Source: Promethearchaeota archaeon (GTDB lineage: Archaea > Asgardarchaeota > Lokiarchaeia > Sigyniarchaeales > SOKP01). From it: a stretch of 19,179 nucleotides of DNA. The translations under genes were made by a program, and so were the position numbers. The notes beneath the pieces were generated by a model that saw only the letters and a program-made list of their open reading frames with translations, had not been told where the DNA came from and made no database searches. The stretch lies in contig SDNY01000070.1 of assembly GCA_004524535.1 (NCBI GenBank), positions 1-19,179 on the forward strand, given 5' to 3'. The first letter of the stretch is position 1. Every line of letters begins with the position of its first letter. Shown piece by piece: positions 3,342 to 19,065 of the stretch.

Positions 3342-3650
3342 ATGAGCATAAAGCTTAAGAACTTGTTAAAGCCAGAAGTTGTTGAGATACTTAATGACAT
3401 AAAAAATTACATTAGCAGAAAAGATTACGATCCGACAGAAATCCTGCGTTGTAAATTATGTGAGATAAAAATAGAAAAGCCATCCCTTCCGTTTATTATC
3501 TGGAGTAAGAATCAAGAATATTTCTGCCCATTTCATTTACAGTGCGCAATAAAACCAGAGTGTGTCGATATTTTTATTATTAATGAAATAGGAGGAAATA
3601 TCGGTTATACATATAATATTGATAACAGCAACAAAGGTGAACGCAATTGA
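3342..3650 (+). CDS. Hypothetical Zn-finger protein (CxxC...HxxC, PARP-type zinc-finger-like)
   Basis: 'RCKLCEIKIEK...FCPFHLQC' has the C-x2-C-x3-I-x-K...H-x2-C spacing of zf-PARP-like fingers. Confidence 0.55.
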   Translation: MSIKLKNLLKPEVVEILNDIKNYISRKDYDPTEILRCKLCEIKIEKPSLPFIIWSKNQEYFCPFHLQCAIKPECVDIFIINEIGGNIGYTYNIDNSNKGERN

Positions 3651-4015
3651 TAGGCGAGGCAAGTGATCAATGCTTAAGTGTTCCTGATCTGAAAAAGATT
3701 TATAGAATATTGGGTGAAGAAGCGATAAAGAAGGCATACAAGGAACCTGAAGTGTCCTTGAAGAGAATAAAGACAAAAATTAAAGACATTATATGCATTG
3801 AAAAAGCCGAAAAAAGATTAAAAGACTTACGTTTTAAGCCTTATTTAAATCTCGGAGATTATATTGAACTTGAATTAGTGCTACGGGGGACTTTAGATAG
3901 AGATAAATGGAGATTTCTAAAGTATTATAGATTAAAATCTATGGTGAGAAAAATTGAATCGTTTTTGAACTCAATTTTCAAAAAATTTGATTATGTTATT
4001 ATTGCAGATGAATAA
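3647..4015 (+). CDS. Hypothetical protein
   Basis: 122-aa ORF with TTG start in a TTGA overlap with the upstream stop, and AGGTGA at 3635-3640. Confidence 0.7.
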   Translation: MIGEASDQCLSVPDLKKIYRILGEEAIKKAYKEPEVSLKRIKTKIKDIICIEKAEKRLKDLRFKPYLNLGDYIELELVLRGTLDRDKWRFLKYYRLKSMVRKIESFLNSIFKKFDYVIIADE

Positions 4016-4205
4016 ATTGGAACCAGATGATTTTGATAAAAAGATAAAGATGATGAGTAAAATGTTTAAAAAATTAGCAAGAAAAGTAAAGAGGTTTAAT
4101 TTAATGGAGGGTAGCTCATCGCATAACCTTAAAACCTTTTCAATTTATTCCTTTTTACCCTTAGAGCTAAATTCCAGTTATATAAGAGGTGTTTATCTTG
4201 AATAG
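4008..4205 (+). CDS. Small hypothetical protein containing BHB element A (65 aa unspliced, 37 aa if spliced)
   Basis: ATG at 4008 overlaps the upstream stop and the ORF fills the gap between two genes. Its 3' half coincides with a structured RNA motif. Confidence 0.45.
   Translation: MNKLEPDDFDKKIKMMSKMFKKLARKVKRFNLMEGSSSHNLKTFSIYSFLPLELNSSYIRGVYLE
4074..4170 (+). other. BHB-like hairpin A; candidate 80-nt intron 4085..4164
   Basis: UUAGC|AAGA|AAA|GUAAAGAGG ... CCUUUUUAC|CCUU|AGA|GCUAA gives a 5-bp outer helix, 3 of 4 bp in the central helix, two 3-nt bulges and a 9-bp inner helix with one G-U pair. Confidence 0.55.
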
Positions 4206-4962
4206 GAAGAGGAATATTTTTAGAAATTTTTATGAAAACTGGAAGAAAATTATTGAAACTTGGTTAGAACTCAATTGGGTGTACCCTCATTGTTTTTCAA
4301 GAAAAATCTTAGTGTTTGATATTTGTGAAATAGGCTCGGATAAGAAAAAAGTGATCCAAGAAAGACTATATACAGGACGGTTTTATGAATGCAAAAAATG
4401 TAAAGAAAAATTTAAAGAATTTTCCCTACCGAGGAGACCTTGGTACGAGGTTCCAGTAGCATTTGTAGAAGAGTATAAGAACATACTTCTTACTCTAAGA
4501 AAGCGTACGGAGAAGGGATTTGATAAGAGTGATTATAAAATATTAGATCTTGTTAGGTATGAAGGGTTTGAGATAACGGCAGAAAGAGAATATCAATTGG
4601 ACGATAAATATATCTGGTTGTATGCAATCGTATATCCTAATATCGATAATTTTGATGACATGAAAGATCATATTGAGAAATTAAAAACATCATATTCAAT
4701 TGCCGAATATGTTTCAATAATTAATAGGGATGGTAAAAAATGTATTAAATATCCGGAAAAGATTCGAAACAGTAAAGTAGAGGATTCTATTATCAATAAA
4801 TTAGTTGAGGAGTATGGAAATAAGAGAACTCGAGATACGGATATCAATGATGTAGGGGAGATTATAGAATCAGAAGAATGGATACAAGCAAAGACTGAAA
4901 GAGCAAGGGAAATGATTGCCTCTTTTAAAATCCTTAATATAATTTGCCTTGAAGTATATTAA
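4198..4962 (+). CDS. IKYPE-domain paralogue 1 with N-terminal degenerate zinc ribbon
   Basis: Likely TTG start at 4198 after GAGGTG (4186-4191). Contains YPHC...ECKKC, and its C-terminal ~130 aa align with the next two ORFs. Confidence 0.8.
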   Translation: MNRKRNIFRNFYENWKKIIETWLELNWVYPHCFSRKILVFDICEIGSDKKKVIQERLYTGRFYECKKCKEKFKEFSLPRRPWYEVPVAFVEEYKNILLTLRKRTEKGFDKSDYKILDLVRYEGFEITAEREYQLDDKYIWLYAIVYPNIDNFDDMKDHIEKLKTSYSIAEYVSIINRDGKKCIKYPEKIRNSKVEDSIINKLVEEYGNKRTRDTDINDVGEIIESEEWIQAKTERAREMIASFKILNIICLEVY

Positions 4963-4978
4963 AAGGAGGAATATAAAC

Positions 4979-5497
4979 ATGAGTGGAAATAAAAAAAATA
5001 AAGTAAGCTACGCTCTTGAGAAAGAGGCAAGAATGTCAGGACAGGACGAGTATGAATCAATTGTACGGTTAAAAAGAGAAGCGGACATAAAGATAACTAG
5101 AAAAGAGATCTCAAAATTGAAAGGGCTTTATATGTATATAAAAGTAATTAGACCGTTTGATGAGAACTTTTTCAACATAATAAAAAAAAGATTCAAATCC
5201 TACTTTCCATTAATCGATTGTAGTAACTATGTGAAGAAGATTGAGAAAAAGGATAAATCATATATTAAATATCCAGAAGAGGTTCTAGTGTCGGAAGTAG
5301 ACAATGAGATTAATGTTGATCTGTCAGAAAAGCATGATATTTGCGATGATTATCTTTCAGAAGAAGAATGGGAAGAGATTCAAGAATCTAAGAGGTGGAA
5401 AGAGACTCAGAAACAGATTGCAAGTGAAATAATTGCAGATAGACTACTTGACGAAATTAATAGGCAAAAATTTGGAATTGATAAAACACAGAGGTAA
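4979..5497 (+). CDS. IKYPE-domain paralogue 2 (stand-alone domain)
   Basis: ATG at 4979 after AGGAGGA (4964-4970). Shares the Y-x-[WY]...P, YV..I....K..IKYPE, EWEEI..S..W and A.EIIA motifs. Confidence 0.8.
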   Translation: MSGNKKNKVSYALEKEARMSGQDEYESIVRLKREADIKITRKEISKLKGLYMYIKVIRPFDENFFNIIKKRFKSYFPLIDCSNYVKKIEKKDKSYIKYPEEVLVSEVDNEINVDLSEKHDICDDYLSEEEWEEIQESKRWKETQKQIASEIIADRLLDEINRQKFGIDKTQR

Positions 5498-5557
5498 TGG
5501 AAAATGTTGATCGAAAAAAGGAGTAATCAAGAAATTAAGGGATGAGGATAATAAATA

Positions 5558-6400
5558 TTGACTGAATTAGAATTAAATGAAAGAACAGAAATAAAAAATC
5601 AAGATAGGCTTGATGCCCTTTTATCTAGGCTTAATAAATGTGCAAATTTATTAGATCCGGATAAAGCTCAATTGATAATTTTTCTTGAGAAGGAATTTAA
5701 TATTAGAATAACAAAGGAGAAACTTCCCATACAATATCAATATATATGGATAATGGTATTAAGGCCTTTTACCATTAAAGTTTATAACTTGGTAAAAAAA
5801 CAGCTTGATCTTCGCAACTTTCCACATTTAATCAATAGTTATGTTATTAAATGTCAATTAGATGGAAAGGATTTTATTAAATATCCTGAGAAAATCGAGA
5901 TAAGCATAATTCAACATAAAATTTTGGATGATTTAACGAGGACCAGAATAGGCGGGAAATTAACAGAGACAGAATGGGAGGTAATAATGAGTACAGCCTC
6001 ATGGAAAATGGCTGAATCGCAAGTCGCTCGAGAACTAATTGCTTTAAATATTTATAATGAAATGAACAATAACCCTATGGAAGAGATTAAGATCAAACAC
6101 ATCAAATACTGGTTAGGTTTAGCAGAAATAATCAAATGGTATAAAACAACAGATCCATGTCATTATCTAAAGAATAGAACTGTCGATTCCCTGTATAACC
6201 TGTTAGAAAAGGCGAAGAATTCTTCTGATAAAATGATTCCCTTATTTACAATAATCAGTAGAATAAAGAAAAATATTGAAAAGGAATGGAAGAGAAATAA
6301 GGACCCCAATCCAAGTGTCAATTTCAGCTTAATCAGCAAACTAATTGATAATTTAGAGAATTTAAAAGAAAAGTTAGAAAGGAATAATATAAATGCATGA
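5558..6400 (+). CDS. IKYPE-domain paralogue 3 with C-terminal helical extension
   Basis: TTG start after GAGG. Same conserved domain (YIWIMVLRPF...YVIKCQLDGKDFIKYPE...EWEVIMSTASW...ARELIA) plus ~105 extra aa. Confidence 0.8.
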   Translation: MTELELNERTEIKNQDRLDALLSRLNKCANLLDPDKAQLIIFLEKEFNIRITKEKLPIQYQYIWIMVLRPFTIKVYNLVKKQLDLRNFPHLINSYVIKCQLDGKDFIKYPEKIEISIIQHKILDDLTRTRIGGKLTETEWEVIMSTASWKMAESQVARELIALNIYNEMNNNPMEEIKIKHIKYWLGLAEIIKWYKTTDPCHYLKNRTVDSLYNLLEKAKNSSDKMIPLFTIISRIKKNIEKEWKRNKDPNPSVNFSLISKLIDNLENLKEKLERNNINA

Positions 6401-6403
6401 AAA

Positions 6404-6501
6404 TTTAGCAAGGAATGTAAAGAGGATAAATATGAATTTGACATGGTGGGGAGTCAGAATAAATCTTTCTTATTCTATACCTCTTTACCCTTAGAACTAA
6501 A
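6404..6501 (+). other. BHB hairpin B; candidate 79-nt intron 6416..6494
   Basis: UUUAG-C|AAGG|AAU|GUAAAGAGG ... CCUCUUUAC|CCUU|AGA|A-CUAAA gives a perfect 4-bp central helix, two 3-nt bulges and a perfect 9-bp inner helix. There is further internal pairing (UUUGAC/GUCAGA). Confidence 0.65.
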
Positions 6502-6541
6502 AAACTCAAGAATTTAAAGACCATGGAAGTGTATATTCAAA

Positions 6542-6724
6542 ATGGAATATAATAATGAACATAAAGATAAGTACGAGTGCGAGCTTAAAATGGACGGAAT
6601 AAGCAAGGATCTTTCGATAACTGAGGATTTTGAATTATGGTTAGAAGAAATTCCAAAATTAATTTATCAATATTCTGATGGTAGTGAAGAAATCATCTTA
6701 AAAATTAAAAAAATAAGAAAATAA
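6542..6724 (+). CDS. Small hypothetical protein
   Basis: 60-aa ATG ORF co-oriented with the island, with GGAAGTG upstream. Confidence 0.6.
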   Translation: MEYNNEHKDKYECELKMDGISKDLSITEDFELWLEEIPKLIYQYSDGSEEIILKIKKIRK

Positions 6725-6869: not shown

Positions 6870-7856
6870 TCATATACTTAATTTTTTTTGTTTTTTATAC
6901 ATAAATATATCTTCTAAAAAATCATAAATTTCATAAACAATCGCAAATCTATTTCTCGAAATTAGGAAATCTATAAATTTCCTTATGTAATTTAAAGCAA
7001 CTTGAAAGTTTTCAAATTCATTTAATTTAGCAAAAATATATCTAATAATTATAATAATCCATGAAAATTCTCCAATATCATTTAAATAATATATTAATTC
7101 CTCCAAATCACTTAAAGTATATTTAAAATTCAGTTTGTTTACCGTTATTTTTCTCATATCGGCGAAGTCTTCCTTTAAAAAAGCTGGTATACGATTGGCT
7201 AAAATTTTATTAACAATTTGAACGAATTTTGGGGAATCTTCAATAATCTGATTTTTAATATTAATATTTTCCAAGAAAACGAATAATAATAAAGCTTTTT
7301 TGCTTGGTTCTAGTTTATAGACGATTTCCCCTAGAAATTTTAGACTAAAATTAAATAATTCTGAAGGAAATACTGTTTTTCTTAAATAAGTTAATAAGAT
7401 TTGTAATTCGATGAGTGTGAGATAATTTTCTTGATCTTTAACTTTTATACAAAATGAATTAATAAATTTAGTGATTCCTTCTACATTTACATTATCTGCT
7501 TTTATGAAAGTTTTTAAAAGTTCTGTCCAAAAATTATTGAATAAATCAAACTCGTCTAATTGCGATAGAAAGGAAAAAAATCGTTTATACGCATCAATTA
7601 ATCTAATGATATCAATCCTCTCTTTTTGTTTAGTTAGAGAATTTAAATATATCCACCATGAATTTGTAATTACCATTATTAATTGCCGTTTTTTCTGGGG
7701 TAGTATCCAATCTGTCTTTTCAATTTCAAAATATAGATTATTAAATAATCTACTTGCCCATTGATGATTAGCATTTTGTAGTAATTGCCTTCCTTGAAGG
7801 ATTTTATCTTGGAAGTCCTTTAAAAATTGGTTTTTATCATCAATACTAAATGTCAT
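6870..7856 (-). CDS. Hypothetical all-alpha (solenoid-like) protein downstream of the actin-related gene; possibly 3'-truncated
   Basis: 328-aa ORF of amphipathic helices starting 18 nt after the actin stop. The last codons (KKQKKLSI) are read from the opposite-strand T-tract. Confidence 0.8.
   Translation of the reverse strand: MTFSIDDKNQFLKDFQDKILQGRQLLQNANHQWASRLFNNLYFEIEKTDWILPQKKRQLIMVITNSWWIYLNSLTKQKERIDIIRLIDAYKRFFSFLSQLDEFDLFNNFWTELLKTFIKADNVNVEGITKFINSFCIKVKDQENYLTLIELQILLTYLRKTVFPSELFNFSLKFLGEIVYKLEPSKKALLLFVFLENINIKNQIIEDSPKFVQIVNKILANRIPAFLKEDFADMRKITVNKLNFKYTLSDLEELIYYLNDIGEFSWIIIIIRYIFAKLNEFENFQVALNYIRKFIDFLISRNRFAIVYEIYDFLEDIFMYKKQKKLSI
6882..6896 (+). terminator. Oligo-T archaeal-type terminator ending the island transcript
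   Basis: T8-G-T6 just after the last + strand stop codon. Confidence 0.4.
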
Positions 7857-7874
7857 TCGGGATTATCACCATAA

Positions 7875-9020
7875 TTAACCTTTATATTCAGGATTCGGTT
7901 TCCACTCTGGCAATTTATTTTTTGAGTATAAAATCGATGCACCAATCCAAGAGATATTTTCCCGACCAGAAGGAGCAATAATATTTAAATTACCTCTAAT
8001 TTTCTCAGAAAAATGTTTAGTCAATTCAAATTTTAATCTTTCTTTTAATCCGGGGATTAAGCTTCCTCCCCCTGCTAAGATAATATGTGGTATAATTTCT
8101 TCCCAATCCTCTCTATTCCATGACTTAATTACTTTTACTATTGCTTCTGGAATTCCAAAATAATCTATGTGAATCAATCTTGGATTAAATAGAGGTTCTG
8201 ATAACATAAATCGCTCTGCATCTATTTTTAGATTTGAACCATCTGGAAAATTAATTTCTTGGTCATAATTTGTAAGCCCTTCTTTTATATTCTTCTTTTC
8301 CTCTTCAGGATTTAAAACAATTAGAGCAGTTTTCTCTTTAATTTCTTTTGCAAGCCATTTATCAAGATAATATTTTTTACTCGAACTTTTATTGGTCAAA
8401 ACCATATTTAAAAAATGGTTAGTTAAATCTTTGCCTGAAATGGGAAAGAGGTCTCTTGCCATTATGTTAGTAAATCCATGAAAAATTGTGGAGATATAAG
8501 TATGGAAATCCCCTATATTAATGATAACTCCAGTTTCTTTTTGTAACGCTTGCATAATTGCTTGACTTTCAGATAGAAACAATAAATAAGGAAAGTTAAA
8601 ATCTTGAAAAAAAATTTGTTCTAATTTAGTTTTCTCCAATTCCGTGGTAAAAAAAGGAGTTATTATTATAATTGGTTGTTTAAATTGATTTTCAGGTAAG
8701 ATGTCTAATTTTTGATAATAATGATGGAAAAACTTTGATAAAATATAATAATTATTTTCTTTCTTGAACTCATGAATTTTTAAAATATTTTGATATTTTA
8801 ATGCATCTATTCCATATAAATGTCTTTCAGTATTTTTTCCAAAAAAAAGATCCTCAAGGCCATCAATTACATCTGATTCAAATATATTATCTGTAGCATC
8901 CACATAAACGCTAGGTGCAATAATTTCTGGCAAATCACTGCCAGCCCATCCTAAACGAAAATTACAATTCCCAATATCTAAAATCAATGGTCTTAATTGT
9001 TTGTTATCAACTGTTAACAT
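7875..9020 (-). CDS. Divergent actin-family (actin-related) protein
   Basis: Phosphate-1 'LILDIGNCNFRLGWAGSDLPEIIAPS', phosphate-2 'TGVIINIGD', 'SGKDLT', 'EIKEK', 'FPDG...ERFMLSEPLFNP', adenosine 'IILAGGGSLIPGLKERL' and 'SWIGASIL'. 381 aa, collinear with eukaryotic actin. Confidence 0.95.
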   Translation of the reverse strand: MLTVDNKQLRPLILDIGNCNFRLGWAGSDLPEIIAPSVYVDATDNIFESDVIDGLEDLFFGKNTERHLYGIDALKYQNILKIHEFKKENNYYILSKFFHHYYQKLDILPENQFKQPIIIITPFFTTELEKTKLEQIFFQDFNFPYLLFLSESQAIMQALQKETGVIINIGDFHTYISTIFHGFTNIMARDLFPISGKDLTNHFLNMVLTNKSSSKKYYLDKWLAKEIKEKTALIVLNPEEEKKNIKEGLTNYDQEINFPDGSNLKIDAERFMLSEPLFNPRLIHIDYFGIPEAIVKVIKSWNREDWEEIIPHIILAGGGSLIPGLKERLKFELTKHFSEKIRGNLNIIAPSGRENISWIGASILYSKNKLPEWKPNPEYKG

Positions 9021-9917: not shown

Positions 9918-10322
9918 TCATTCTAATGGAATTATCTCTACTTTAATCGCGTCTCCTTCATGTTTTAGAATTTCTTTAAGCTCATCTAAGTCCAATTCTT
10001 TAGGTCTCGGACCTATTACTGTCCATATTGCAGTCTTATCTCTCTCTATTGTTACAGATTCACCATAAACTAAGGAGATCCCGTGATTTCCAAAAGTTGT
10101 AGCTATTTTGGCTAACGATCCCGCCTCATCCTTCATTAAAATTCTAAATTTAAGAGAATCCCCTTTAATTCCAACCGGGGATATTTTAATCTCTTGAGTC
10201 TCTGAATCCGCAATCAACATTAACTGGGAGTTCTCTCTGAGTCCTAATAGTTTTCTGACACTCATGGGTATTACTATTCTTCCTCGATTATCGATCGTTA
10301 TCGGAAATTTTACTTCTTTCAT
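9918..10322 (-). CDS. AbrB/MazE/SpoVT-type DNA-binding domain fused to an ACT domain
   Basis: 'ITIDNRGRIVIPMSVRKLLGL' (AbrB) and 'MKDEAGSLAKIATTFGNHGISL' (ACT). Confidence 0.9.
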   Translation of the reverse strand: MKEVKFPITIDNRGRIVIPMSVRKLLGLRENSQLMLIADSETQEIKISPVGIKGDSLKFRILMKDEAGSLAKIATTFGNHGISLVYGESVTIERDKTAIWTVIGPRPKELDLDELKEILKHEGDAIKVEIIPLE

Positions 10323-10491: not shown

Positions 10492-12792
10492 TTATTCTTT
10501 ATGAGACTTTAATTTTACTGTAAGATCTCTTGCTCGCTTAGAATACCACACCAATAAATCCCCTGCATCTTCTGGCTTAAAATACTCGCCACCGCATAGA
10601 GCAGCAGCACGAGCCATAAGTTCATCATTTGGGTTCCCCAAACCGACTATATAAATGACAACATTCATATTCTCAGAGAATTTTTTAACAGATTCGAAGA
10701 AGGCATCTCCATCTGTAGGCTCCCCATCGGTAAGGAGGACAATCATGGTTGGCTGGTTCGGGCTTATGCGCTCAAATTCAGTAAGCACATAATGAGCCTG
10801 TTCCATAGATTTCCCCATCGCGGTTGCTTGGCCATAGCTATTTCCTATACGATCAACAATCATTCTCGCAGCCTCCTCTAAAATTCCTTTTTTACCACTT
10901 GCGGAATCCATGTAAAAACCACCTCCAAAAGGCAGTATTTGAGCTTCATCAGCAAATCGAATAACAGAAACTTTTTCTCCAAAACCACGACCCACTTTTT
11001 CACTTAGAAATAGAACTGCTGCGAACGCTGCTGAGATCCTTCGTGGAATATTAATCCCATCCTTGAAGTTTTTCAAAAATTCTTGAATTTCTCTGGATTC
11101 CATTGCTGCTTTAATACCTTCTATAGCAGGGGCTATGTTCGTGACAAGCACATCTCTTGCCATCATGCTTCGGCTTATATCAATTATCAAAATAGCGTTA
11201 AATGGTATCAAACCAGTTGGTGAAAGGGATAATGTGGTATTTGGCGTAATTTGAGCTAAAATATCACCTGTTAAGTCTGGAACACAACTAATAATGGAAC
11301 AAGCAATATTTACAGCAGTCCATCTTAATTTAATTCCCTTGAAAATTATATAGTTTGAAAGCCAATCTTTTAAAGCTACTACGCTATCTCTTGCACTACT
11401 TATAATTTCCCACATGTTTTCACCAGAAATCGGTGAAACACCTAAAGAAACACTTTGTAAAGGAATTATTTGCCTTTGATTTTTTGATAATTTTATTTCA
11501 TAGCTTCCAATTCCAGAAGCTTCTAAAATTTCGCTATCTATTATAACTACATTGTCAGGGACAGTCTCTACAATAGTCACCTTACCCGCTCCAATCGCTC
11601 CAGTTAGCTCATCTTCAAATGCTACAACATCATTATTTTGAATTGAAATAGTATGTTGAGTTCTTGGACTTACTTGGCAATAACCATTTAAGTTTGGTTG
11701 TGACTGAACTTCTAATACTATTTCGGAAGCTTTTTGTATTGGTGGTTCCGTAGAATAGACTACGATTTGTTCGGCATGAATATTTGTATCTTCTTTCGTA
11801 TCTTTACTCATTTTTATCTCTGTATAGCCAATTTGTGCTTGAGTTATTCTCGCTGAACCCATTGCTCTCGTTAAAGGATCTTCCCATGCTATTAACATTC
11901 CGTGTCCAAGGCCTAATTGTTGTAAAACATCATAACTTAGTTGTACTCGCCCTCCTTCTAAGTTTTCATCTACAACTGGGGTTAGAATTATACCATTTTT
12001 CTGACTGCTCAGCATATTTATATCAATTCTATTAGGATAGGGATCTACCGTTTCCATTGGAGCAATAGTTCCTTGCGCCGGTGTTGGTTGAGATATTGAG
12101 GATTGTTGGGTATAAGAAGAAGGAGGAGCACTCATTTGAGGTGCTGGTGTTGGCTGTGGTGCTGGTGTTAATTGTGGTGCTGGTGTTAATTGTGGTGCTG
12201 GTGTTGGTTGTGGTGCTGGTGTTAATTGTGGTGCTGGTGTTAATTGTGGTGCTGGTGTTGGTTGTGGTGCTGGTTTTAATTGTGGAGTTGTTGCAGGCTG
12301 AGGAGCTGGAGTAGGTTGAGGCATTGTTGCAGGCTGAGGAGCTGGAGTTGGTTGAGGTATTGTTGCAGGCTGAGGAGCTGGAGTAAGTTGAGGAGTTGGG
12401 GTAAGTTGAGGAGTTGGAGTAGGCTGAGGAGTAGGGGTAGTCTGAGATCCAACGCCAGGTAAATGGGCTTGTGGTGCCTGAAGTGTCTGCTGAGCTGGTG
12501 TAGCTGGTTGTGGTGCTTGCGAAGCGAATGGAGTAGTTATACTTGGTTTCACAATTATTTCTATTCCGTTAAATTCTATTTTATCAATAATATTTTTAGA
12601 AATTTGCCCCGCGAAATCTAGGGCATTATCGGAAACCTCAGCAATAGCAATAGCACTTTTTCCATTATCCGGATTTAATATTTCCAATGAATCACCATTC
12701 GAAATACCTAATTTGGTAGCATTAGTTTGATTTATAATGGCACGATCTGCTGTGTCCTCTTTAATATCAACAAAAATTTTTATTTCTGGCAT
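10492..12792 (-). CDS. vWA-domain protein with repeated Cdc48-N-like beta-barrel modules and a Pro/Gln/Thr-rich linker
   Basis: C-terminal MIDAS: DISRS, T in GQATAMG, D in LLTDG. Three similar modules (A.KLGISNGDSLEILNP; LQQLGLGHGMLIAWEDP; HTISIQNNDVVAFEDE) resemble double-psi beta-barrels. Confidence 0.85.
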   Translation of the reverse strand: MPEIKIFVDIKEDTADRAIINQTNATKLGISNGDSLEILNPDNGKSAIAIAEVSDNALDFAGQISKNIIDKIEFNGIEIIVKPSITTPFASQAPQPATPAQQTLQAPQAHLPGVGSQTTPTPQPTPTPQLTPTPQLTPAPQPATIPQPTPAPQPATMPQPTPAPQPATTPQLKPAPQPTPAPQLTPAPQLTPAPQPTPAPQLTPAPQLTPAPQPTPAPQMSAPPSSYTQQSSISQPTPAQGTIAPMETVDPYPNRIDINMLSSQKNGIILTPVVDENLEGGRVQLSYDVLQQLGLGHGMLIAWEDPLTRAMGSARITQAQIGYTEIKMSKDTKEDTNIHAEQIVVYSTEPPIQKASEIVLEVQSQPNLNGYCQVSPRTQHTISIQNNDVVAFEDELTGAIGAGKVTIVETVPDNVVIIDSEILEASGIGSYEIKLSKNQRQIIPLQSVSLGVSPISGENMWEIISSARDSVVALKDWLSNYIIFKGIKLRWTAVNIACSIISCVPDLTGDILAQITPNTTLSLSPTGLIPFNAILIIDISRSMMARDVLVTNIAPAIEGIKAAMESREIQEFLKNFKDGINIPRRISAAFAAVLFLSEKVGRGFGEKVSVIRFADEAQILPFGGGFYMDSASGKKGILEEAARMIVDRIGNSYGQATAMGKSMEQAHYVLTEFERISPNQPTMIVLLTDGEPTDGDAFFESVKKFSENMNVVIYIVGLGNPNDELMARAAALCGGEYFKPEDAGDLLVWYSKRARDLTVKLKSHKE
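12142..12429 (-). repeat. In-frame 18-bp tandem repeat, 16 units encoding PQ[PL][TA][PT]x
   Basis: Directly visible, e.g. (tgtggtgctggtgttaat)n on the + strand, with higher-order 36-bp and 54-bp periodicities. Confidence 0.95.
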
Positions 12793-13023: not shown

Positions 13024-13442
13024 CTATAAAGGGGGATAGCGTTTACCTATCTCAGACGAATAGTAACGGAAAACGGTGACAACTTTCCCAAGATCCTGAA
13101 TTTTTCGGGATGCTCCCATAAGAAAAAAGCGACCGGCAGCGCTGAGTATAATGAATGCGTCTTCTCCTCTTAATACGACTTCTAGCATATTGTGAAAACC
13201 CAGTGTATCAATAGCATCTGAACCACTCTTCATGACAACGGCGCTTAAACTTGAAAATAAATCTGGGTCAACCTCATAGCTTGGAATGCAGCTAAAGGCC
13301 AATTGTAGCCCCTCCGTAGTCACTAGTGCGAGTGCTTCTAGTTCTGTATGTTCCGGTATATTGGCATATGTCAATATAATTCCGTTATGTTCCCCAAGAA
13401 GCTTGATAGACTTGTGGCCTCGTCGGGCGTTAAACTAACCAT
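13024..13442 (-). CDS. Roadblock/LC7 (MglB-like) protein, split by a 29-nt insert; join(13380..13442,13024..13350), 129 aa
   Basis: 'LEALALVTTEGL...DPDLFSSLSAVV...LG...LEVVLRGEDAFIILSAAGRFFLM...DLG' is a Roadblock pattern. The missing first helix (MVSLTPDEATSLSSFLGNITE) is encoded from ATG 13442 in another frame. Confidence 0.85.
13351..13379 (-). other. Candidate 29-nt BHB-like (relaxed) intron in the Roadblock gene
   Basis: mRNA ACGG|AA^U|UAUAUUG-ACAUAUGC-CAAUAUA|CCGG|AA^C. Cutting after the 2nd nt of each 3-nt bulge removes 29 nt, deletes an in-frame TGA and fuses the two frames. Confidence 0.6.
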
Positions 13443-14605: not shown

Positions 14606-16177
14606 TTAGCATTCTTTATTTAATAAATTCAGAATAGTTTCATTGATGTTAGATATCATATCCACAGCAGTAAAGCGAGTTCCGATTTTATTTCTACAAT
14701 ATTCTCCTATATAACCATTAAGAAAAGCAGCAGAACAAGCTGACTGAAATGGCTTGTTTTCTATCGCAAGAAAACTAGCACATAACCCTGCTAAAACATC
14801 TCCAGTTCCTCCAATGGACATTTCAGGGCAACCTGTTCTATTTATCTTCATAACTTTTCCATTACTGATATAATCAAACGGCCCCTTTACCAATAGAATA
14901 ACATCAAGCTTTTTTGCTAAATTAGTTATAATATCGCCTCGTTCTTTAATTTTATTATATGGTGGTAATTCTACACCTGATATAATTTTAAATTCTCCAT
15001 CGTGAGGGGTTAAAATAACAGGTTGACCTTCTAGGATATTTAAATGGTTCTTAACTAATTTCAAAGCGTCGGCATCAAGTACAAACGATTTTTTACTATT
15101 TTTCAACTTTTCTAATATTTTTACTAAAAGTTCTTCAGTTTCTTTTTTTTCTCCTAAGCCTGGTCCAATTAATATTGAGTTTGACCAATCAATCAAATGC
15201 GAGATCTCATCAAACGCATTAATATTTAGCCAATCGCCAGGGTTAGTTCTTACAATCATATTTGGGGAATAATTTCTAATTGCATCCCCTACAACTTCTG
15301 GCGTATAGGTAATAACTAAGTCAATTCCAAAATTAATGCCCGTTAAAGAAGAGTAAGCGGGAGCACCTGAGTAATTTTTAGATCCTCCTACAACTAAAAT
15401 TCTCCCATACTGGCCTTTATGGGTGTCAACTTTTCTAACTTTTAAATTTGAAATTAGATCTCCCCTACCTATAAATAAGCTGGCCTCTAGAGGAATTCCT
15501 ATGGATTTCACTATTATTTCATTAATGAATTTACTATTTCTTTTCATTCCTCTCTTAATTCGATGGAATGTTATCACTAAATCCGATTTAACTGCTTTAT
15601 CTAAAACTTTACCACTGTTAGGATCTAATCCGGAAGGGACATCAATTGAAACAATTTTAATATTATCTTCTTCTCTTAGAGCGTTAATCATTTCTATTGC
15701 TGAGGAGATTGGTTCTCTAATTTTACCTATTATTCCAGTTCCTAACAAACCATCTATAATTAAATTCAATCCTTTTGCATCCTTAATTTGTGTATCAATT
15801 TCTGTTAATTCACTTGAGTCTCTTATAATTTTAATTTGTATTGAATGATTGAGATGTTTTGAAATTATCTCCCAATTTAGTTTTGCCTCCTGGGTTCTTA
15901 TCTTGTCTGGTAATCCAATGAGAATTACTAACACTTTTATTCCAAAAGAGGATAAATGACGAGCGACTACAAATCCGTCGCCTCCATTATTTCCTGTACC
16001 GCAAAAGATAGAAACTTTAGAATTATCATCCAGATTATATCTTTTGATGATTTCAATTGCGAAAGAATAACCAGCACACTCCATTAAATGACTTTTTGGG
16101 ATTCCTAACCACTCAGAGTTATTATCCAAAATCGCCATTTCTTCAGATGATATTTTTTCCGAACTTATATGCTCCAT
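14606..16177 (-). CDS. nnr: Bifunctional NAD(P)H-hydrate epimerase/dehydratase (YjeF_N + YjeF_C)
   Basis: Motifs LMECAG, CGTGNNGGDG, DGLLGTG, SIDVPSG, HKGQYG, GGSKNYSGAP, GPGLG, LDADAL, LTPHDGEF, GGTGDVLAG. Confidence 0.97.
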   Translation of the reverse strand: MEHISSEKISSEEMAILDNNSEWLGIPKSHLMECAGYSFAIEIIKRYNLDDNSKVSIFCGTGNNGGDGFVVARHLSSFGIKVLVILIGLPDKIRTQEAKLNWEIISKHLNHSIQIKIIRDSSELTEIDTQIKDAKGLNLIIDGLLGTGIIGKIREPISSAIEMINALREEDNIKIVSIDVPSGLDPNSGKVLDKAVKSDLVITFHRIKRGMKRNSKFINEIIVKSIGIPLEASLFIGRGDLISNLKVRKVDTHKGQYGRILVVGGSKNYSGAPAYSSLTGINFGIDLVITYTPEVVGDAIRNYSPNMIVRTNPGDWLNINAFDEISHLIDWSNSILIGPGLGEKKETEELLVKILEKLKNSKKSFVLDADALKLVKNHLNILEGQPVILTPHDGEFKIISGVELPPYNKIKERGDIITNLAKKLDVILLVKGPFDYISNGKVMKINRTGCPEMSIGGTGDVLAGLCASFLAIENKPFQSACSAAFLNGYIGEYCRNKIGTRFTAVDMISNINETILNLLNKEC

Positions 16178-16337
16178 AATAATTAATCTTAGAATGTTTT
16201 ATTAAAAAATATTTATGAATTCATTAAAAGAACAAACAAGTTTTTTAAAAAATGGACTTTTATAGAAATATTTAAATATATAAAATAGATATTTACTTAC
16301 CAAAAATTTTAAAAAAAAATCCAACGTGAAAAAAATT

Positions 16338-17276
16338 ATGAAATATTCTAAAATAATATTATTTGGACTATTGGTAATAACTCTTCTAATACCTTTTGCT
16401 TCTATCGCTCATGCTGCGAAAACACCAGGCTACGTAGGTATCAAAGAAGGTCAAACTTATACTTGGACTACTGAATTCGATGCGGGACCCTTGGAAGATT
16501 ATTATGAAGATATAGGGGAAACTAAAGAAGAAGCTGAAGAAGACGCATGGAATGTGATGGAATCGCGGGAATGGGAAGAAGAGGTTGTTGAATGGAAATT
16601 AACCATTCAGGAAATAAGAAAGGAAGATGACTTATATTTTGTGGATCCAGATGAATCTTTAGCAGATGAGTATGAATATGTGAAATACGTTTATTCTTTA
16701 AAAGAATTGGATGGTGATGTTTGGCATTGGAGAACAATAGATACGTACCAGACAGCAAAGATTTTTGAACCAGACGAAGAATTATGGGGAAAAGAATTCA
16801 TGAGTTTTATTTTTGGTGTTTCTACATTTAATCCTTATCGAGCAGACCTCAGTTATCCCTCTTTAGTTGTCGCTAAGAATCTTGATTGGGATGAGGTAGC
16901 ACGATGGATGGAAAAACCTCTTTACCCTCGTGAGAAAGATTATTATAAGGCGAAGGAAATAAAGATACAACATTTTCTAGATAAAAAACAAGTTGGTCTT
17001 TATACAGAACTGGATACCAGCTATGGAAATCCTCAATATGAAAAAGATATTGACACATTTGAATCAATTTCCAAATATAATGATGATGGAATTCTTTATT
17101 ACTATGAAGTTACTTATGATGGAGATATAATCGCTAAATTTGAGTTAAAAGGAATGATGGGAAATTATGTGTATATTTACGAAAACTGGTGGTGGATGGC
17201 TTTAGTAGCTGGAGCGGCGGTTGTAGGAGTTATAATTCTTATCGTAGTTATAATTAAATTAAAAAAACGGAAATAA
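16338..17276 (+). CDS. Acidic secreted, C-terminally membrane-anchored surface protein, copy 1
   Basis: Signal peptide MKYSKIILFGLLVITLLIPFASIAHA (ATG 16338; in-frame GTG at 16326), 'YVGIKEGQTYTW' at the mature N-terminus, and a C-terminal TM helix plus KLKKRK. Confidence 0.9.
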   Translation: MKYSKIILFGLLVITLLIPFASIAHAAKTPGYVGIKEGQTYTWTTEFDAGPLEDYYEDIGETKEEAEEDAWNVMESREWEEEVVEWKLTIQEIRKEDDLYFVDPDESLADEYEYVKYVYSLKELDGDVWHWRTIDTYQTAKIFEPDEELWGKEFMSFIFGVSTFNPYRADLSYPSLVVAKNLDWDEVARWMEKPLYPREKDYYKAKEIKIQHFLDKKQVGLYTELDTSYGNPQYEKDIDTFESISKYNDDGILYYYEVTYDGDIIAKFELKGMMGNYVYIYENWWWMALVAGAAVVGVIILIVVIIKLKKRK

Positions 17277-17603
17277 TCACAAAGACCTCTAATTTTTAAA
17301 ATCTTTTTTTTTTGATATTATTTATTTTCAAGAAATAAATCAATTAATTTGCCTTCTAAAAAGGCAATCTTAGACTGAGTTTATCATCAACAAATATAAA
17401 ATTATCCATCAATTCGATTCCAATATTTAGATATGATTCATAATAATTAATCTTAGAAATTTGTATTAAAAAATATTTATGAATTCGTCAAAAAAACAAC
17501 CAAGTTTTCTAAAAAAATGGACTTTTATGGAAATATTTAAATTTATGAGTATAAATCTTTAATTAACAAAGAATTTAAAAAAAAATCCAACGTGAAAAAA
17601 ATT

Positions 17604-18545
17604 ATGAAATATTCTAAAATAATATTATTTGGATTATTGGTAATAACACTTCTAATACCATTTGCTTCCATCGCTCATGCTGCGAAAACACCAGGTTATG
17701 TGGGTATTAAAGAAGGTCAAACTTATACTTGGACTACTGAATTTGACCAAGGTCCATTGGAAGATTATTATGAAGATAGAGGGAAAACTAAAGAAGAAGC
17801 TGAGGAGGATGCATGGGATGACATGGAGGATTTTGAATGGGAAGAAGAGGTTGTTGAATGGAAATTGAGCATCCATGAGATAAGAGATGAAGACGAAATT
17901 TTTATAGAGGGATATCCATTTATAACTTTATCTGACGATTACGATTTTGTAAAATATGTCTATTCTCTAAAGGAATTAGATGGTGATGTTTGGTATTGGA
18001 GACCAATAGATACGTACCAGACAGCAAAGATTTTTGAACCAGATGAAGAACTATGGGGAAAAACACAAACAAGTTTTAGATACGGAATTTCTATTGTTAA
18101 TACTCCACGATCAGATCTTTCATATCCTGCTATGATGGTAGCTAAGAATTTAGACTGGGATGAAGTCGCAAGATGGATGGAAAAACCTTATACTCCTGCC
18201 CAAAAGGAGTACAGGGAAGCCAATGAAATAAAAATTCAGTATTTTCTTGGTAAAAAACAAGTCGGGATTTATACAGAATGGGATCCTTCTTTGTATTATC
18301 CTCAATATGAAAAAGATCTTGGCACATTTGAATCTATTTCTAAATATAATGATGATGGAATCCTTTATTACTATGAATATACTTATGATGGAGATATAAT
18401 CGCTAAATTGGAATTAAAAGGATATCAGGGTAATTACGTTTATATCTTCGAAAACTGGTGGTGGATGGTTTTAGTAGCTGGAGCGGCGGTTGTAGGAGTT
18501 ATAATTCTTATCGTAGTTATAATTAAATTAAAAAAACGGAAATAA
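17604..18545 (+). CDS. Acidic secreted, C-terminally membrane-anchored surface protein, copy 2
   Basis: Paralogue of 16338..17276 with identical signal peptide and near-identical anchor (ATG 17604; in-frame GTG at 17592). Confidence 0.9.
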   Translation: MKYSKIILFGLLVITLLIPFASIAHAAKTPGYVGIKEGQTYTWTTEFDQGPLEDYYEDRGKTKEEAEEDAWDDMEDFEWEEEVVEWKLSIHEIRDEDEIFIEGYPFITLSDDYDFVKYVYSLKELDGDVWYWRPIDTYQTAKIFEPDEELWGKTQTSFRYGISIVNTPRSDLSYPAMMVAKNLDWDEVARWMEKPYTPAQKEYREANEIKIQYFLGKKQVGIYTEWDPSLYYPQYEKDLGTFESISKYNDDGILYYYEYTYDGDIIAKLELKGYQGNYVYIFENWWWMVLVAGAAVVGVIILIVVIIKLKKRK

Positions 18546-19065
18546 TCAAAAAGAGACATATTTAGTCCCTATAATTTTTAAAATCTTTTTTTTTTTATTT
18601 TATTTTCAAGGAATAAATCAATTAATTTGCCTTCTAAAAAAGCAATCTTAGAGTGAGTTTATCATCAACAAATATAAAATGATCTACCAATTCGATTCTA
18701 TTATTTAGATATGATTCATTATTCATGAATCATGAATTATGAAATAATTAGGACTTAGAAATAAAAAACTTTTTAGGTTGTTTCTCTAAAAGAAGTGTGA
18801 TATTTAAAATTAACAAAAATTCTTAAGCACACCAAATAATTCTTTAAAACCACCTATTTCAAATTCAGAACAGAAAGGGATTTTCGATTCTCTCCTTACT
18901 AATCGAATTTTGATTAGAACTAAGTATTTAAATTAATATTGATGTGAAAAATTTTATACTTTTTTTTTATCCAAGTATTTGACTAAAGAAAAGTAAAAAA
19001 AAATTATTTCTTCAATTTTTTATGATAATAAGAGTATGATCATTAATTGATAGTAAATTAAATAC

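Follow-up and report, generated by a model that had tools for sequence, protein, structure and literature searches.

The archaeal splicing endonuclease (EndA) recognizes the bulge-helix-bulge (BHB) motif regardless of the context in which it lies. A BHB intron was reportedly described by Watanabe in 2002 in the cbf5 pre-messenger RNA (pre-mRNA) of Crenarchaeota, and the unconventional cytoplasmic splicing of HAC1/XBP1, which is stress-regulated, is carried out by Ire1 together with a tRNA ligase or RtcB. In the papers cited here and below, two kinds of archaeal messenger RNA (mRNA) BHB introns are described: the cbf5 intron, known from Crenarchaeota and subject to lineage-specific gain and loss (PMC2738675, Yokobori 2009), and the intron in the 5' untranslated region of HVO_1309 of Haloferax volcanii, confirmed in vivo and in vitro (PMC7714728). 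HAC1/XBP1 splicing is likewise named in PMC8718801. A literature search with an Asgard focus returned no description of an mRNA BHB intron in Asgard archaea or in a mobile element. The present work concerns two copies of one element of approximately 97 nucleotides (nt), at positions 4074-4170 (element A) and 6405-6500 (element B) of a contig from a Promethearchaeota archaeon; the window, that is, the whole stretch analyzed, is this entire contig (G000:C169, 19179 nt), and the genome amounts to 3.66 Mb at 99% completeness. The evidence supports the hairpin formed by these copies as a real, conserved BHB-type RNA structure on the plus strand, and the balance leans slightly towards both copies being EndA substrates in the sense strand of a polycistronic mRNA.

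On the plus strand, elements A and B both fold into a 3-nt bulge, a 4-base-pair (bp) helix and a second 3-nt bulge, which is the archaeal BHB arrangement. The order of the parts is outer helix, 3-nt bulge on the 3' strand, 4-bp helix, 3-nt bulge on the 5' strand and long inner helix. The individual features are as follows.

4074..4170, plus strand: element A, spanning the whole BHB hairpin between the two ends of its outer helix; covariance-model scores 122.3, 108.7 and 80.6 bits
4074..4078, plus strand: outer helix of A, 5' strand TTAGC, with 5 of 5 pairs to 4166-4170
4079..4082, plus strand: central 4-bp helix of A, 5' strand AAGA, pairing with 4159-4162 (CCTT) through three pairs and one A·C mismatch
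4083..4085, plus strand: 5' bulge of A, AAA, with the predicted cut after 4084 on the geometry of the tRNA-Pro control described below
4085..4164, plus strand: predicted excised RNA of A, 80 nt, whose 9-bp inner helix joins 4086-4094 to 4150-4158 and whose interior has diverged
4163..4165, plus strand: 3' bulge of A, AGA, with the predicted cut after 4164
4166..4170, plus strand: outer helix of A, 3' strand GCTAA, pairing with TTAGC at 4074..4078
6405..6500, plus strand: element B, the paralogous BHB hairpin, with a predicted excised RNA of 79 nt (6416-6494)

The inner helix of A contains one G-U pair, for which the corresponding pair in B is G-C; this change, together with the A·C mismatch in the central helix, had been pointed out in an earlier, sequence-only reading of this DNA and is confirmed by the pairing anatomy. 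In element B, the outer helix (TTAGC/ACTAA) carries a C·A mismatch at the pair beside the bulge, a detail absent from that reading, and the central helix (AAGG/CCTT) and the 9-bp inner helix are perfect; the bulges are AAT and AGA. No tRNA or ribosomal RNA (rRNA) context is present at either element, and Rfam leaves both unmatched, its only matches in the window being two chance-level long non-coding RNA hits elsewhere (E 0.1-0.2). No third copy was found in the same genome by BLAST, by fuzzy matching of both arms or with a covariance model. Two other structural readings were set aside: a kink-turn, for which no tandem G·A pairs were seen beside the bulges, and a C/D-box RNA, as GTGATGA occurs only in homologues D and F (see below) and no D box was found.

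The homology of the two copies is apparent from the comparison of their arms. The 5' arms (4071-4094 and 6402-6425) are identical at 21 of 24 positions and the 3' arms (4150-4171 and 6480-6501) at 20 of 22, with maxima of 19 and 17, respectively, in 500 shuffles; a repeat finder lists the same arms as direct-repeat families D14 and D15. Between the arms, 36 of 55 interior positions agree (4095-4149 versus 6426-6479; mean of 29.9 and maximum of 38 after shuffling), and in the 40-nt flanks 25 and 19 of 40 positions do so (shuffled means 24.8 and 21.2). Since interior and flanks are near random, conservation is confined to the arms, which are approximately 90% identical next to random flanks and to neighbouring paralogous proteins of only 26-35% identity. 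The arm identities, the divergence of an interior that nevertheless keeps its length (80 versus 79 nt) and the restriction of conservation to the arms had all been proposed from the sequence, and each was reproduced here, the first above the shuffle maxima and the others with the flank and interior shuffles.

Altogether, six copies of the element (A-F) occur in 3 of the 134 family genomes searched, with C-F lying in two other Promethearchaeota genomes. Elements C (G018:C16) and D (G223:C116) were found by reading the loci of the paralogue protein family that neighbours A and B; E (52 bits, in G223:C82) and F (39.7 bits, in G223:C68) came from a covariance model built on A-D and run over the 134 genomes. 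All six stand in the sense orientation of the surrounding operon genes. In copies A-E two 3-nt bulges enclose exactly 4 bp, the outer and central helices together contain no more than one mismatch, 4 or 5 of 5 outer pairs form and the inner helices measure 8-13 bp; the central helix is fully paired in B-E, and only F fails the pattern. The sequences that achieve this pairing differ from copy to copy. The outer 5' strands of C, D and E read TTGGC, TTAGT or TTGGA with matching partners, their central helices pair AAGG, GAGG or TAGG with CCTT, CCTT or CCTA, and their inner helices differ at most positions; the compensatory changes in these three copies fall in all three helices. In C, D, E and F the inner stem extends five to six pairs past the eight core pairs (13-14 bp), with a different sequence in each, and bulge sizes and 4-bp spacing are exact in all five intact copies despite approximately 40% substitution in the arms of E.

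Quantitatively, in a MAFFT alignment of the six copies, the degenerate F included, 89.2% of 102 cells pair. Eight of the 17 pairs are changed on both sides, a count matched by 3 of 500 shuffles, and the covariation score of 0.463 is matched by none of 500. Sliding the 3' partners by one to three columns lowers pairing to 40-62% of cells, and A-D alone give 95.6% paired cells with 5 of 17 pairs changed on both sides. Without F, G-U pairs fill 9 cells and A·C or C·A mismatches 3, an excess that favours the plus strand as the structured one. For C, D and E the BHB is the unconstrained minimum-energy structure, with fold z-scores of −4.17 for D and −3.14 for E (each matched by 0 of 200 shuffles) and −1.95 for C (7 of 200). 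An RNAalifold run on C-F was set aside with E one column out of register. The sequence-only reading had named as its own refutation homologues that conserve the peptide and break the pairing; this situation is found in one of the four foreign homologues, F, and not in C, D or E, which maintain the 3-4-3 geometry through compensatory changes and do not conserve the peptide.

A genuine BHB intron of the same genome served as control. The gene for tRNA-Pro(tgg) at C118:23717-23818 contains a 28-nt intron. Along the 5' strand of its BHB, an outer helix of 7 bp is followed by a 4-bp helix, then a bulge and then the inner helix, an order identical to that of A and B, and its predicted cut coincides with the canonical 37/38 site. 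The reverse complement of A and B would have the mirror arrangement, unlike this true intron. The genome also encodes two EndA-type subunits (PF01974, 107.9 and 70.7 bits; regions C100:31106-31336 and C84:30615-30863) and RtcB (PF01139, 561 bits), all above the respective cut-offs. Asgard EndA is reported to be an (alpha-beta)2-type enzyme, with a loop that gives broad specificity (PMC5829648), and Asgard tRNA genes are reported to be heavily interrupted by BHB introns (bioRxiv 10.64898/2026.10.13.758758). As a separate observation, ARAGORN with intron search listed only 12 tRNA genes, 8 of them with introns, in this 99% complete genome (G000), which fits a recent report of heavily interrupted Asgard tRNA genes missed by standard tools.

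From these findings we infer cleavage, ligation, circularization and a regulatory role, with partial cutting and religation of the operon transcript at the hairpins as the most economical mechanism. EndA would cleave each bulge 3' of its second base, whereupon RtcB would join the exons and close the excised RNA, 79-80 nt here and 146-154 nt in the homologues, into a circle. The predicted excised lengths are 80, 79, 146, 152 and 154 nt in A-E and 145 nt in F, none of them a multiple of three, and the predicted junction codon is AAA in A-E. Given such lengths, and since most of the small open reading frame (ORF) around the hairpin lies in the excised segment, splicing would replace the product of 33-78 residues by a short peptide with an unrelated tail. 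The element would thereby act as a translatable intron, in which a stop-free frame lets ribosomes on unspliced RNA run through an operon with overlapping stop and start codons; since the unspliced RNA would also be translated, in-frame stops would be selected against as the residues drift. Depending on what fraction of transcripts folds and is cut, the small protein may be switched post-transcriptionally or controlled in its dosage, and possibly the following gene with it. The element is thus a likely switch that would yield either the full-length small product or a truncated one, a circular RNA being released as by-product.

Both hairpins belong to a tight plus-strand operon of orphan genes (3342-6724) with overlapping stop and start codons, none of which was assigned a family in searches of Pfam, PHROG and NCBIfam. 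The genes adjoining the elements are listed below.

4008..4205, plus strand: small ORF containing element A, 65 residues unspliced, with no Pfam, PHROG or NCBIfam family
4198..4962, plus strand: downstream gene, the first of three paralogues, starting at TTG 4198 after a Shine-Dalgarno-like GAGGTG, with an alternative start at GTG 4189
4949..5497, plus strand: second paralogue, 182 residues; its rare family is found together with the element in other genomes too
5558..6400, plus strand: third paralogue, 280 residues, directly followed by element B
6393..6494, plus strand: small ORF containing element B, 33 residues unspliced, whose ATG overlaps the stop of gene 5558-6400
6542..6724, plus strand: 60-residue ORF 3' of element B, whose ATG would be overlapped by the stop of the spliced B ORF

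The three larger genes (4189-4962, 4949-5497 and 5558-6400) are mutual paralogues with 26-35% protein identity. The hairpin pairs approximately codons 5-11 of the small ORF with a stretch near the 3' end of that ORF; for ORF 4008..4205 an alternative start, ATG at 4062, lies 12 nt 5' of hairpin A. The start of gene 4198..4962 is overlapped by the stops of both the unspliced and the predicted spliced small ORF. The open 65-residue unspliced frame, as well as the predicted 37-residue spliced product with its junction and its TTGA overlap with TTG 4198, were recovered as the sequence-only reading had described them. Among the copies, the full-length frame is open in A, C, D and F; in B it is open only up to the 3' arm, and E has a stop and a shift. 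The other two frames through the interior contain 3-9 stops, apart from one stop-free frame in B, and the probability of an open frame with a shuffled interior is 0.25 for A, 0.15 for B, 0.07 for C, 0.07 for D, 0.08 for E and 0.08 for F.

At the level of residues, selection on the small ORF appears weak. Between D and F the ratio of nonsynonymous to synonymous substitution (dN/dS) is approximately 0.71, and their differences fall 27/22/26 by codon position, with no third-position excess. A 20-nt block is identical in C and E and is read by the two ORFs in different frames; compared with C, element E needs a frameshift and carries a stop, and B shows a one-base shift against A. When a profile built on the four intact ORFs was searched against 5.8 billion proteins, only F and A themselves were retrieved. 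The open frame thus seems to be kept without much care for the residues encoded, and two constraints, one on RNA structure and one on the open frame, appear to act on the element, unlike on a simple gene-restoring intron.

Independently of these points, the interior of both predicted introns shows an AAGAGG in the 5' strand of the inner helix followed by an in-frame ATG, 9 nt later in A (4089-4106) and 6 nt later in B (6420-6434). The excised and possibly circular RNA would therefore carry its own Shine-Dalgarno-like site and start codon, and in the predicted circle from A the frame preceded by AAGAGG would end with a stop just past the junction.

Several observations weigh against the EndA reading. 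At thresholds that A just meets (outer helix of at least 5 bp, inner helix of at least 9 bp, at most one central mismatch, 40-200 nt excised), a strict scan finds one match per strand of the window, compared with a mean of 2.8 per strand in 20 first-order Markov simulations, and a looser scan returns 601 BHB matches on the plus strand. The unaided folds of A (z −0.97) and B (z −1.17) are not unusually stable, a stronger z-score (−2.61) is obtained for the reverse strand of B, and each copy carries a mismatch, A·C in the central helix of A and C·A beside the bulge of B. The single motif is therefore no better than chance, and the case rests wholly on the comparison between copies. What stands above chance is the homology of the two copies, six with those of other genomes, and the conserved pairing. 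The covariation itself has to be read with the structure having been derived from the same sequences, six in number and from three genomes; E comes into register only after all flanks are cut to equal length; and the number of further pair types, one of the two robust measures, is not significant (17 versus 14.9, matched by 76 of 500 shuffles). A chance similarity with no function would agree with A lying within chance expectation at a fold z-score of −0.97, and it is scarcely credible in view of six homologous copies in three genomes, arms conserved far above their flanks, the covariation and the significant z-scores of D and E.

Most of the remaining points against splicing concern the frame, and they also speak for a structured but never spliced mRNA. 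In such an mRNA, a genuine small protein would be encoded, the long-range hairpin would serve stability, translation control or protein binding, and the BHB likeness would be inherited from a single ancestor and functionless; we regard this as possible, though doubtful. In five of six copies (A, B, C, D and F) the L-x-R-K frame of the 5' arm reaches the 3' arm without a stop, with one stop in E and in the face of 3-9 stops in other frames. An ATG stands exactly 27 nt 5' of the hairpin in D, E and F, and D and F also have a Shine-Dalgarno-like site. The open frame and these start signals imply that the unspliced RNA is probably translated. F, moreover, keeps a 71-residue ORF, 38% identical to that of D, and the inner stem, with its outer and central helices, and hence the BHB, broken. 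The predicted spliced tails, of 11, 18, 7, 20 and 2 residues in A-E, are unrelated beyond the junction lysine codon, so that splicing would restore nothing recognizable. In DNA as rich in AT as this, chance alone makes BHB-like motifs frequent. An intron-less homologue was found neither in the 134 family genomes nor at 18 loci 3' of a family gene nor among 5.8 billion proteins. Against an mRNA that is never spliced, however, stand the compensatory changes in the outer and central helices as well, the exact bulge sizes and 4-bp spacing of all five intact copies, and the retention of the motif in B and E although their full-length frame is lost. The dN/dS of approximately 0.7, the third positions without excess and the recovery of only F and A from the protein databases equally fit poorly with a conserved protein, and the endonuclease would recognize the motif whatever its context.

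Two further explanations shift the function away from the peptide altogether. The excised RNA itself might be the product, as a small, probably circular, non-coding RNA released through the BHB, with incidental ORFs. The covarying structure, the 20-nt interior block read in two frames by C and E, and the 13-14-bp inner stem, different in sequence in each of C, D, E and F, are compatible with this, and BHB-released circular RNAs are well-known in archaea (PMC12558985). We nonetheless hold it to be quite improbable, as the match between the A and B interiors hardly exceeds random (36/55, with up to 38 in shuffles), the length varies from 79 to 154 nt, Rfam gives no match, no conserved C/D-box pair is seen and the open frame would go unexplained. 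Alternatively, the arms could act as a DNA-level inverted repeat, either as ends of a miniature transposable element or as a recombination or replication site of a mobile-looking cluster. This would suit a related element set between unrelated flanks in A and B, its patchy presence in 3 of 134 genomes and the neighbourhood of Orc1/Cdc6, RadA and reverse transcriptase genes elsewhere. It is very improbable all the same: there are only two copies in the host genome with no target-site duplication seen in the A and B flanks, the arms are staggered by bulges and do not form a plain inverted repeat, G-U pairs favour one strand, and the orientation is sense in all six copies. The BHB interpretation offered from the sequence is accordingly upheld in part: conserved sense-strand structure, tRNA-Pro geometry and the EndA and RtcB genes support it, and the unrelated spliced tails, the frame open in five of six copies and the lack of a BHB in F do not.

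The genes that accompany the element are themselves rare. The paralogue protein family was found in 19 of 399 genomes sampled from the phylum, the present one included, and all 19 belong to one taxonomic family. No member was found in viral contigs or in metagenome contigs, and among genome contigs one locus was found, in a Promethearchaeota metagenome-assembled genome. In G223, which carries at least three versions of the cluster, D and F follow a paralogue-family gene after an intervening 47-residue ORF. In the other two genomes the cluster adjoins genes for Orc1/Cdc6, RadA and an RPA-like protein; one of the two has a reverse transcriptase gene there as well. The element-bearing cluster thus looks mobile, or at least highly variable; no integrase and no cluster boundaries were found. 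The reverse transcriptase gene (PF00078, E 1.2e-21) lies at 7342-8490 on the minus strand of locus L099 (G018:C16), approximately 2 kb 3' of element C, between the cluster and the RadA gene; the window contains no reverse transcriptase.

The search for additional copies produced a number of candidates that were not retained. Matches of a first covariance model (R1, built on A and B only) in 60 relatives and in the loci were rejected for motif mismatches and AT-rich noise. With model R2, the match in G219:C91 (32.6 bits; arms with a seemingly deleted interior) lies inside a 421-residue ORF on the other strand and that in G210:C46 inside a 229-residue ORF, again on the other strand; the matches in G009 and weaker ones have broken pairing. 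Model R3, built on all six copies, retrieved only its six training copies from the 134 family genomes. A two-arm DNA pattern gave 6 metagenome stretches and no viral ones, and the 20-mer common to C and E matched 3 viral stretches; the arms are missing from all of these, which were taken as chance. Separately, a very clean BHB-like hairpin was noticed on the minus strand of locus L089 (G194:C69:159500-173500), at offsets of approximately 9968-10070, with the bulges AAA and AGA of element A, an outer helix TATCGA/TCGATA, a central helix GAGA/TCTT, 11 of 12 inner positions paired and 75 nt excised. An ATG stands 16 nt before its central helix, and a paralogue-family gene lies 2.7 kb away on the other strand; this hairpin is possibly a distant relative of the element.

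The GC content is 26-38%. Outside the operon, the window encodes, among other archaeal genes, a Roadblock/LC7 protein and an actin homologue (PF00022, E 1.9e-46). The actin-family gene (7875-9020, minus strand) and the Roadblock/LC7 gene (13024-13374, minus strand) encode eukaryote-like signature proteins, which fit an Asgard host. Adjoining the operon with element B, a 328-residue ORF (6870-7856, minus strand) corresponds to the first 324 residues of proteins of approximately 860 residues in three relatives (41-57% identity); residues 313-814 are encoded elsewhere, at C104:150-1655, with their own ATG and an AT-rich leader, which indicates a split gene or a rearrangement. An insertion into this gene was considered and rejected, given that the break point and the C104 start share no repeat and that the C-terminal part has its own ATG. 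A tandem duplication of approximately 1.27 kb (16167-17444 and 17431-18722, 75-92% identity) gives rise to paralogues of 316 and 317 residues with an N-terminal signal-like segment, a C-terminal hydrophobic anchor and no Pfam family. Finally, an array of at least 16 copies of an 18-nt repeat (12082-12517), within gene 10492-12792 on the minus strand, encodes a linker rich in proline, threonine and glutamine in a 766-residue protein that ends in a von Willebrand A domain.

If the hairpins of A and B are cut, the tRNA-splicing machinery of Asgard archaea, which is very busy there, would also edit messenger RNA, and an intron could stay translatable while awaiting its removal. Splicing that is protein-free and defined by structure could then switch a gene product, which bears on the origin of regulated mRNA splicing by endonuclease and RtcB. 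In practical terms, gene callers should be used here with the warning that the 65- and 33-residue ORFs may not be the sole or main products.

Compared with HAC1/XBP1, the likeness is one of functional analogy only. In both cases a short intron is bounded by paired motifs and would be removed by an endonuclease with RtcB-type ligation, with no spliceosome; the intron length is not a multiple of three, the C-termini of the spliced and unspliced products would differ and the unspliced form is, here probably, translated. HAC1/XBP1 splicing differs in its nuclease, Ire1, in its motif of two stem-loops and in its established stress regulation. A broader proposal, which we consider unlikely in its full extent, is that operons of Asgard mobile elements carry translated, frame-switching BHB introns: unspliced RNA would give one small protein, splicing by EndA and RtcB a truncated one and a circular RNA, and the balance would be set by competition between ribosomes and RNA folding, making this an archaeal counterpart of HAC1/XBP1 with the same ligase, found among the closest prokaryotic relatives of eukaryotes.

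Among archaeal introns, those of tRNA and rRNA have the identical geometry, as seen in the tRNA-Pro control, and the same enzymes and a circular excised RNA are expected (PMC12558985); here, in contrast, the host is an mRNA and the interior is an open frame continuous with the upstream exon. With cbf5 the element shares a BHB in an archaeal protein-coding transcript, which in cbf5 is cut by the tRNA splicing endonuclease, and a lineage-specific distribution. For cbf5, however, experiments have demonstrated splicing, and an essential, conserved protein is restored by it, whereas predicted splicing of the present element would truncate a small orphan ORF. Most of that ORF falls within the excised part, which is kept open; the host here is an Asgard archaeon, and the element sits in a rare, mobile-looking cluster. 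Because its removal would not restore a conserved protein, the element is not placed in the cbf5 type. The intron of HVO_1309 resembles it as an mRNA substrate of EndA outside tRNA and rRNA, whose removal affects expression and not protein sequence (PMC7714728); that intron lies in an untranslated leader, whereas the one predicted here lies within an ORF and would change its frame.

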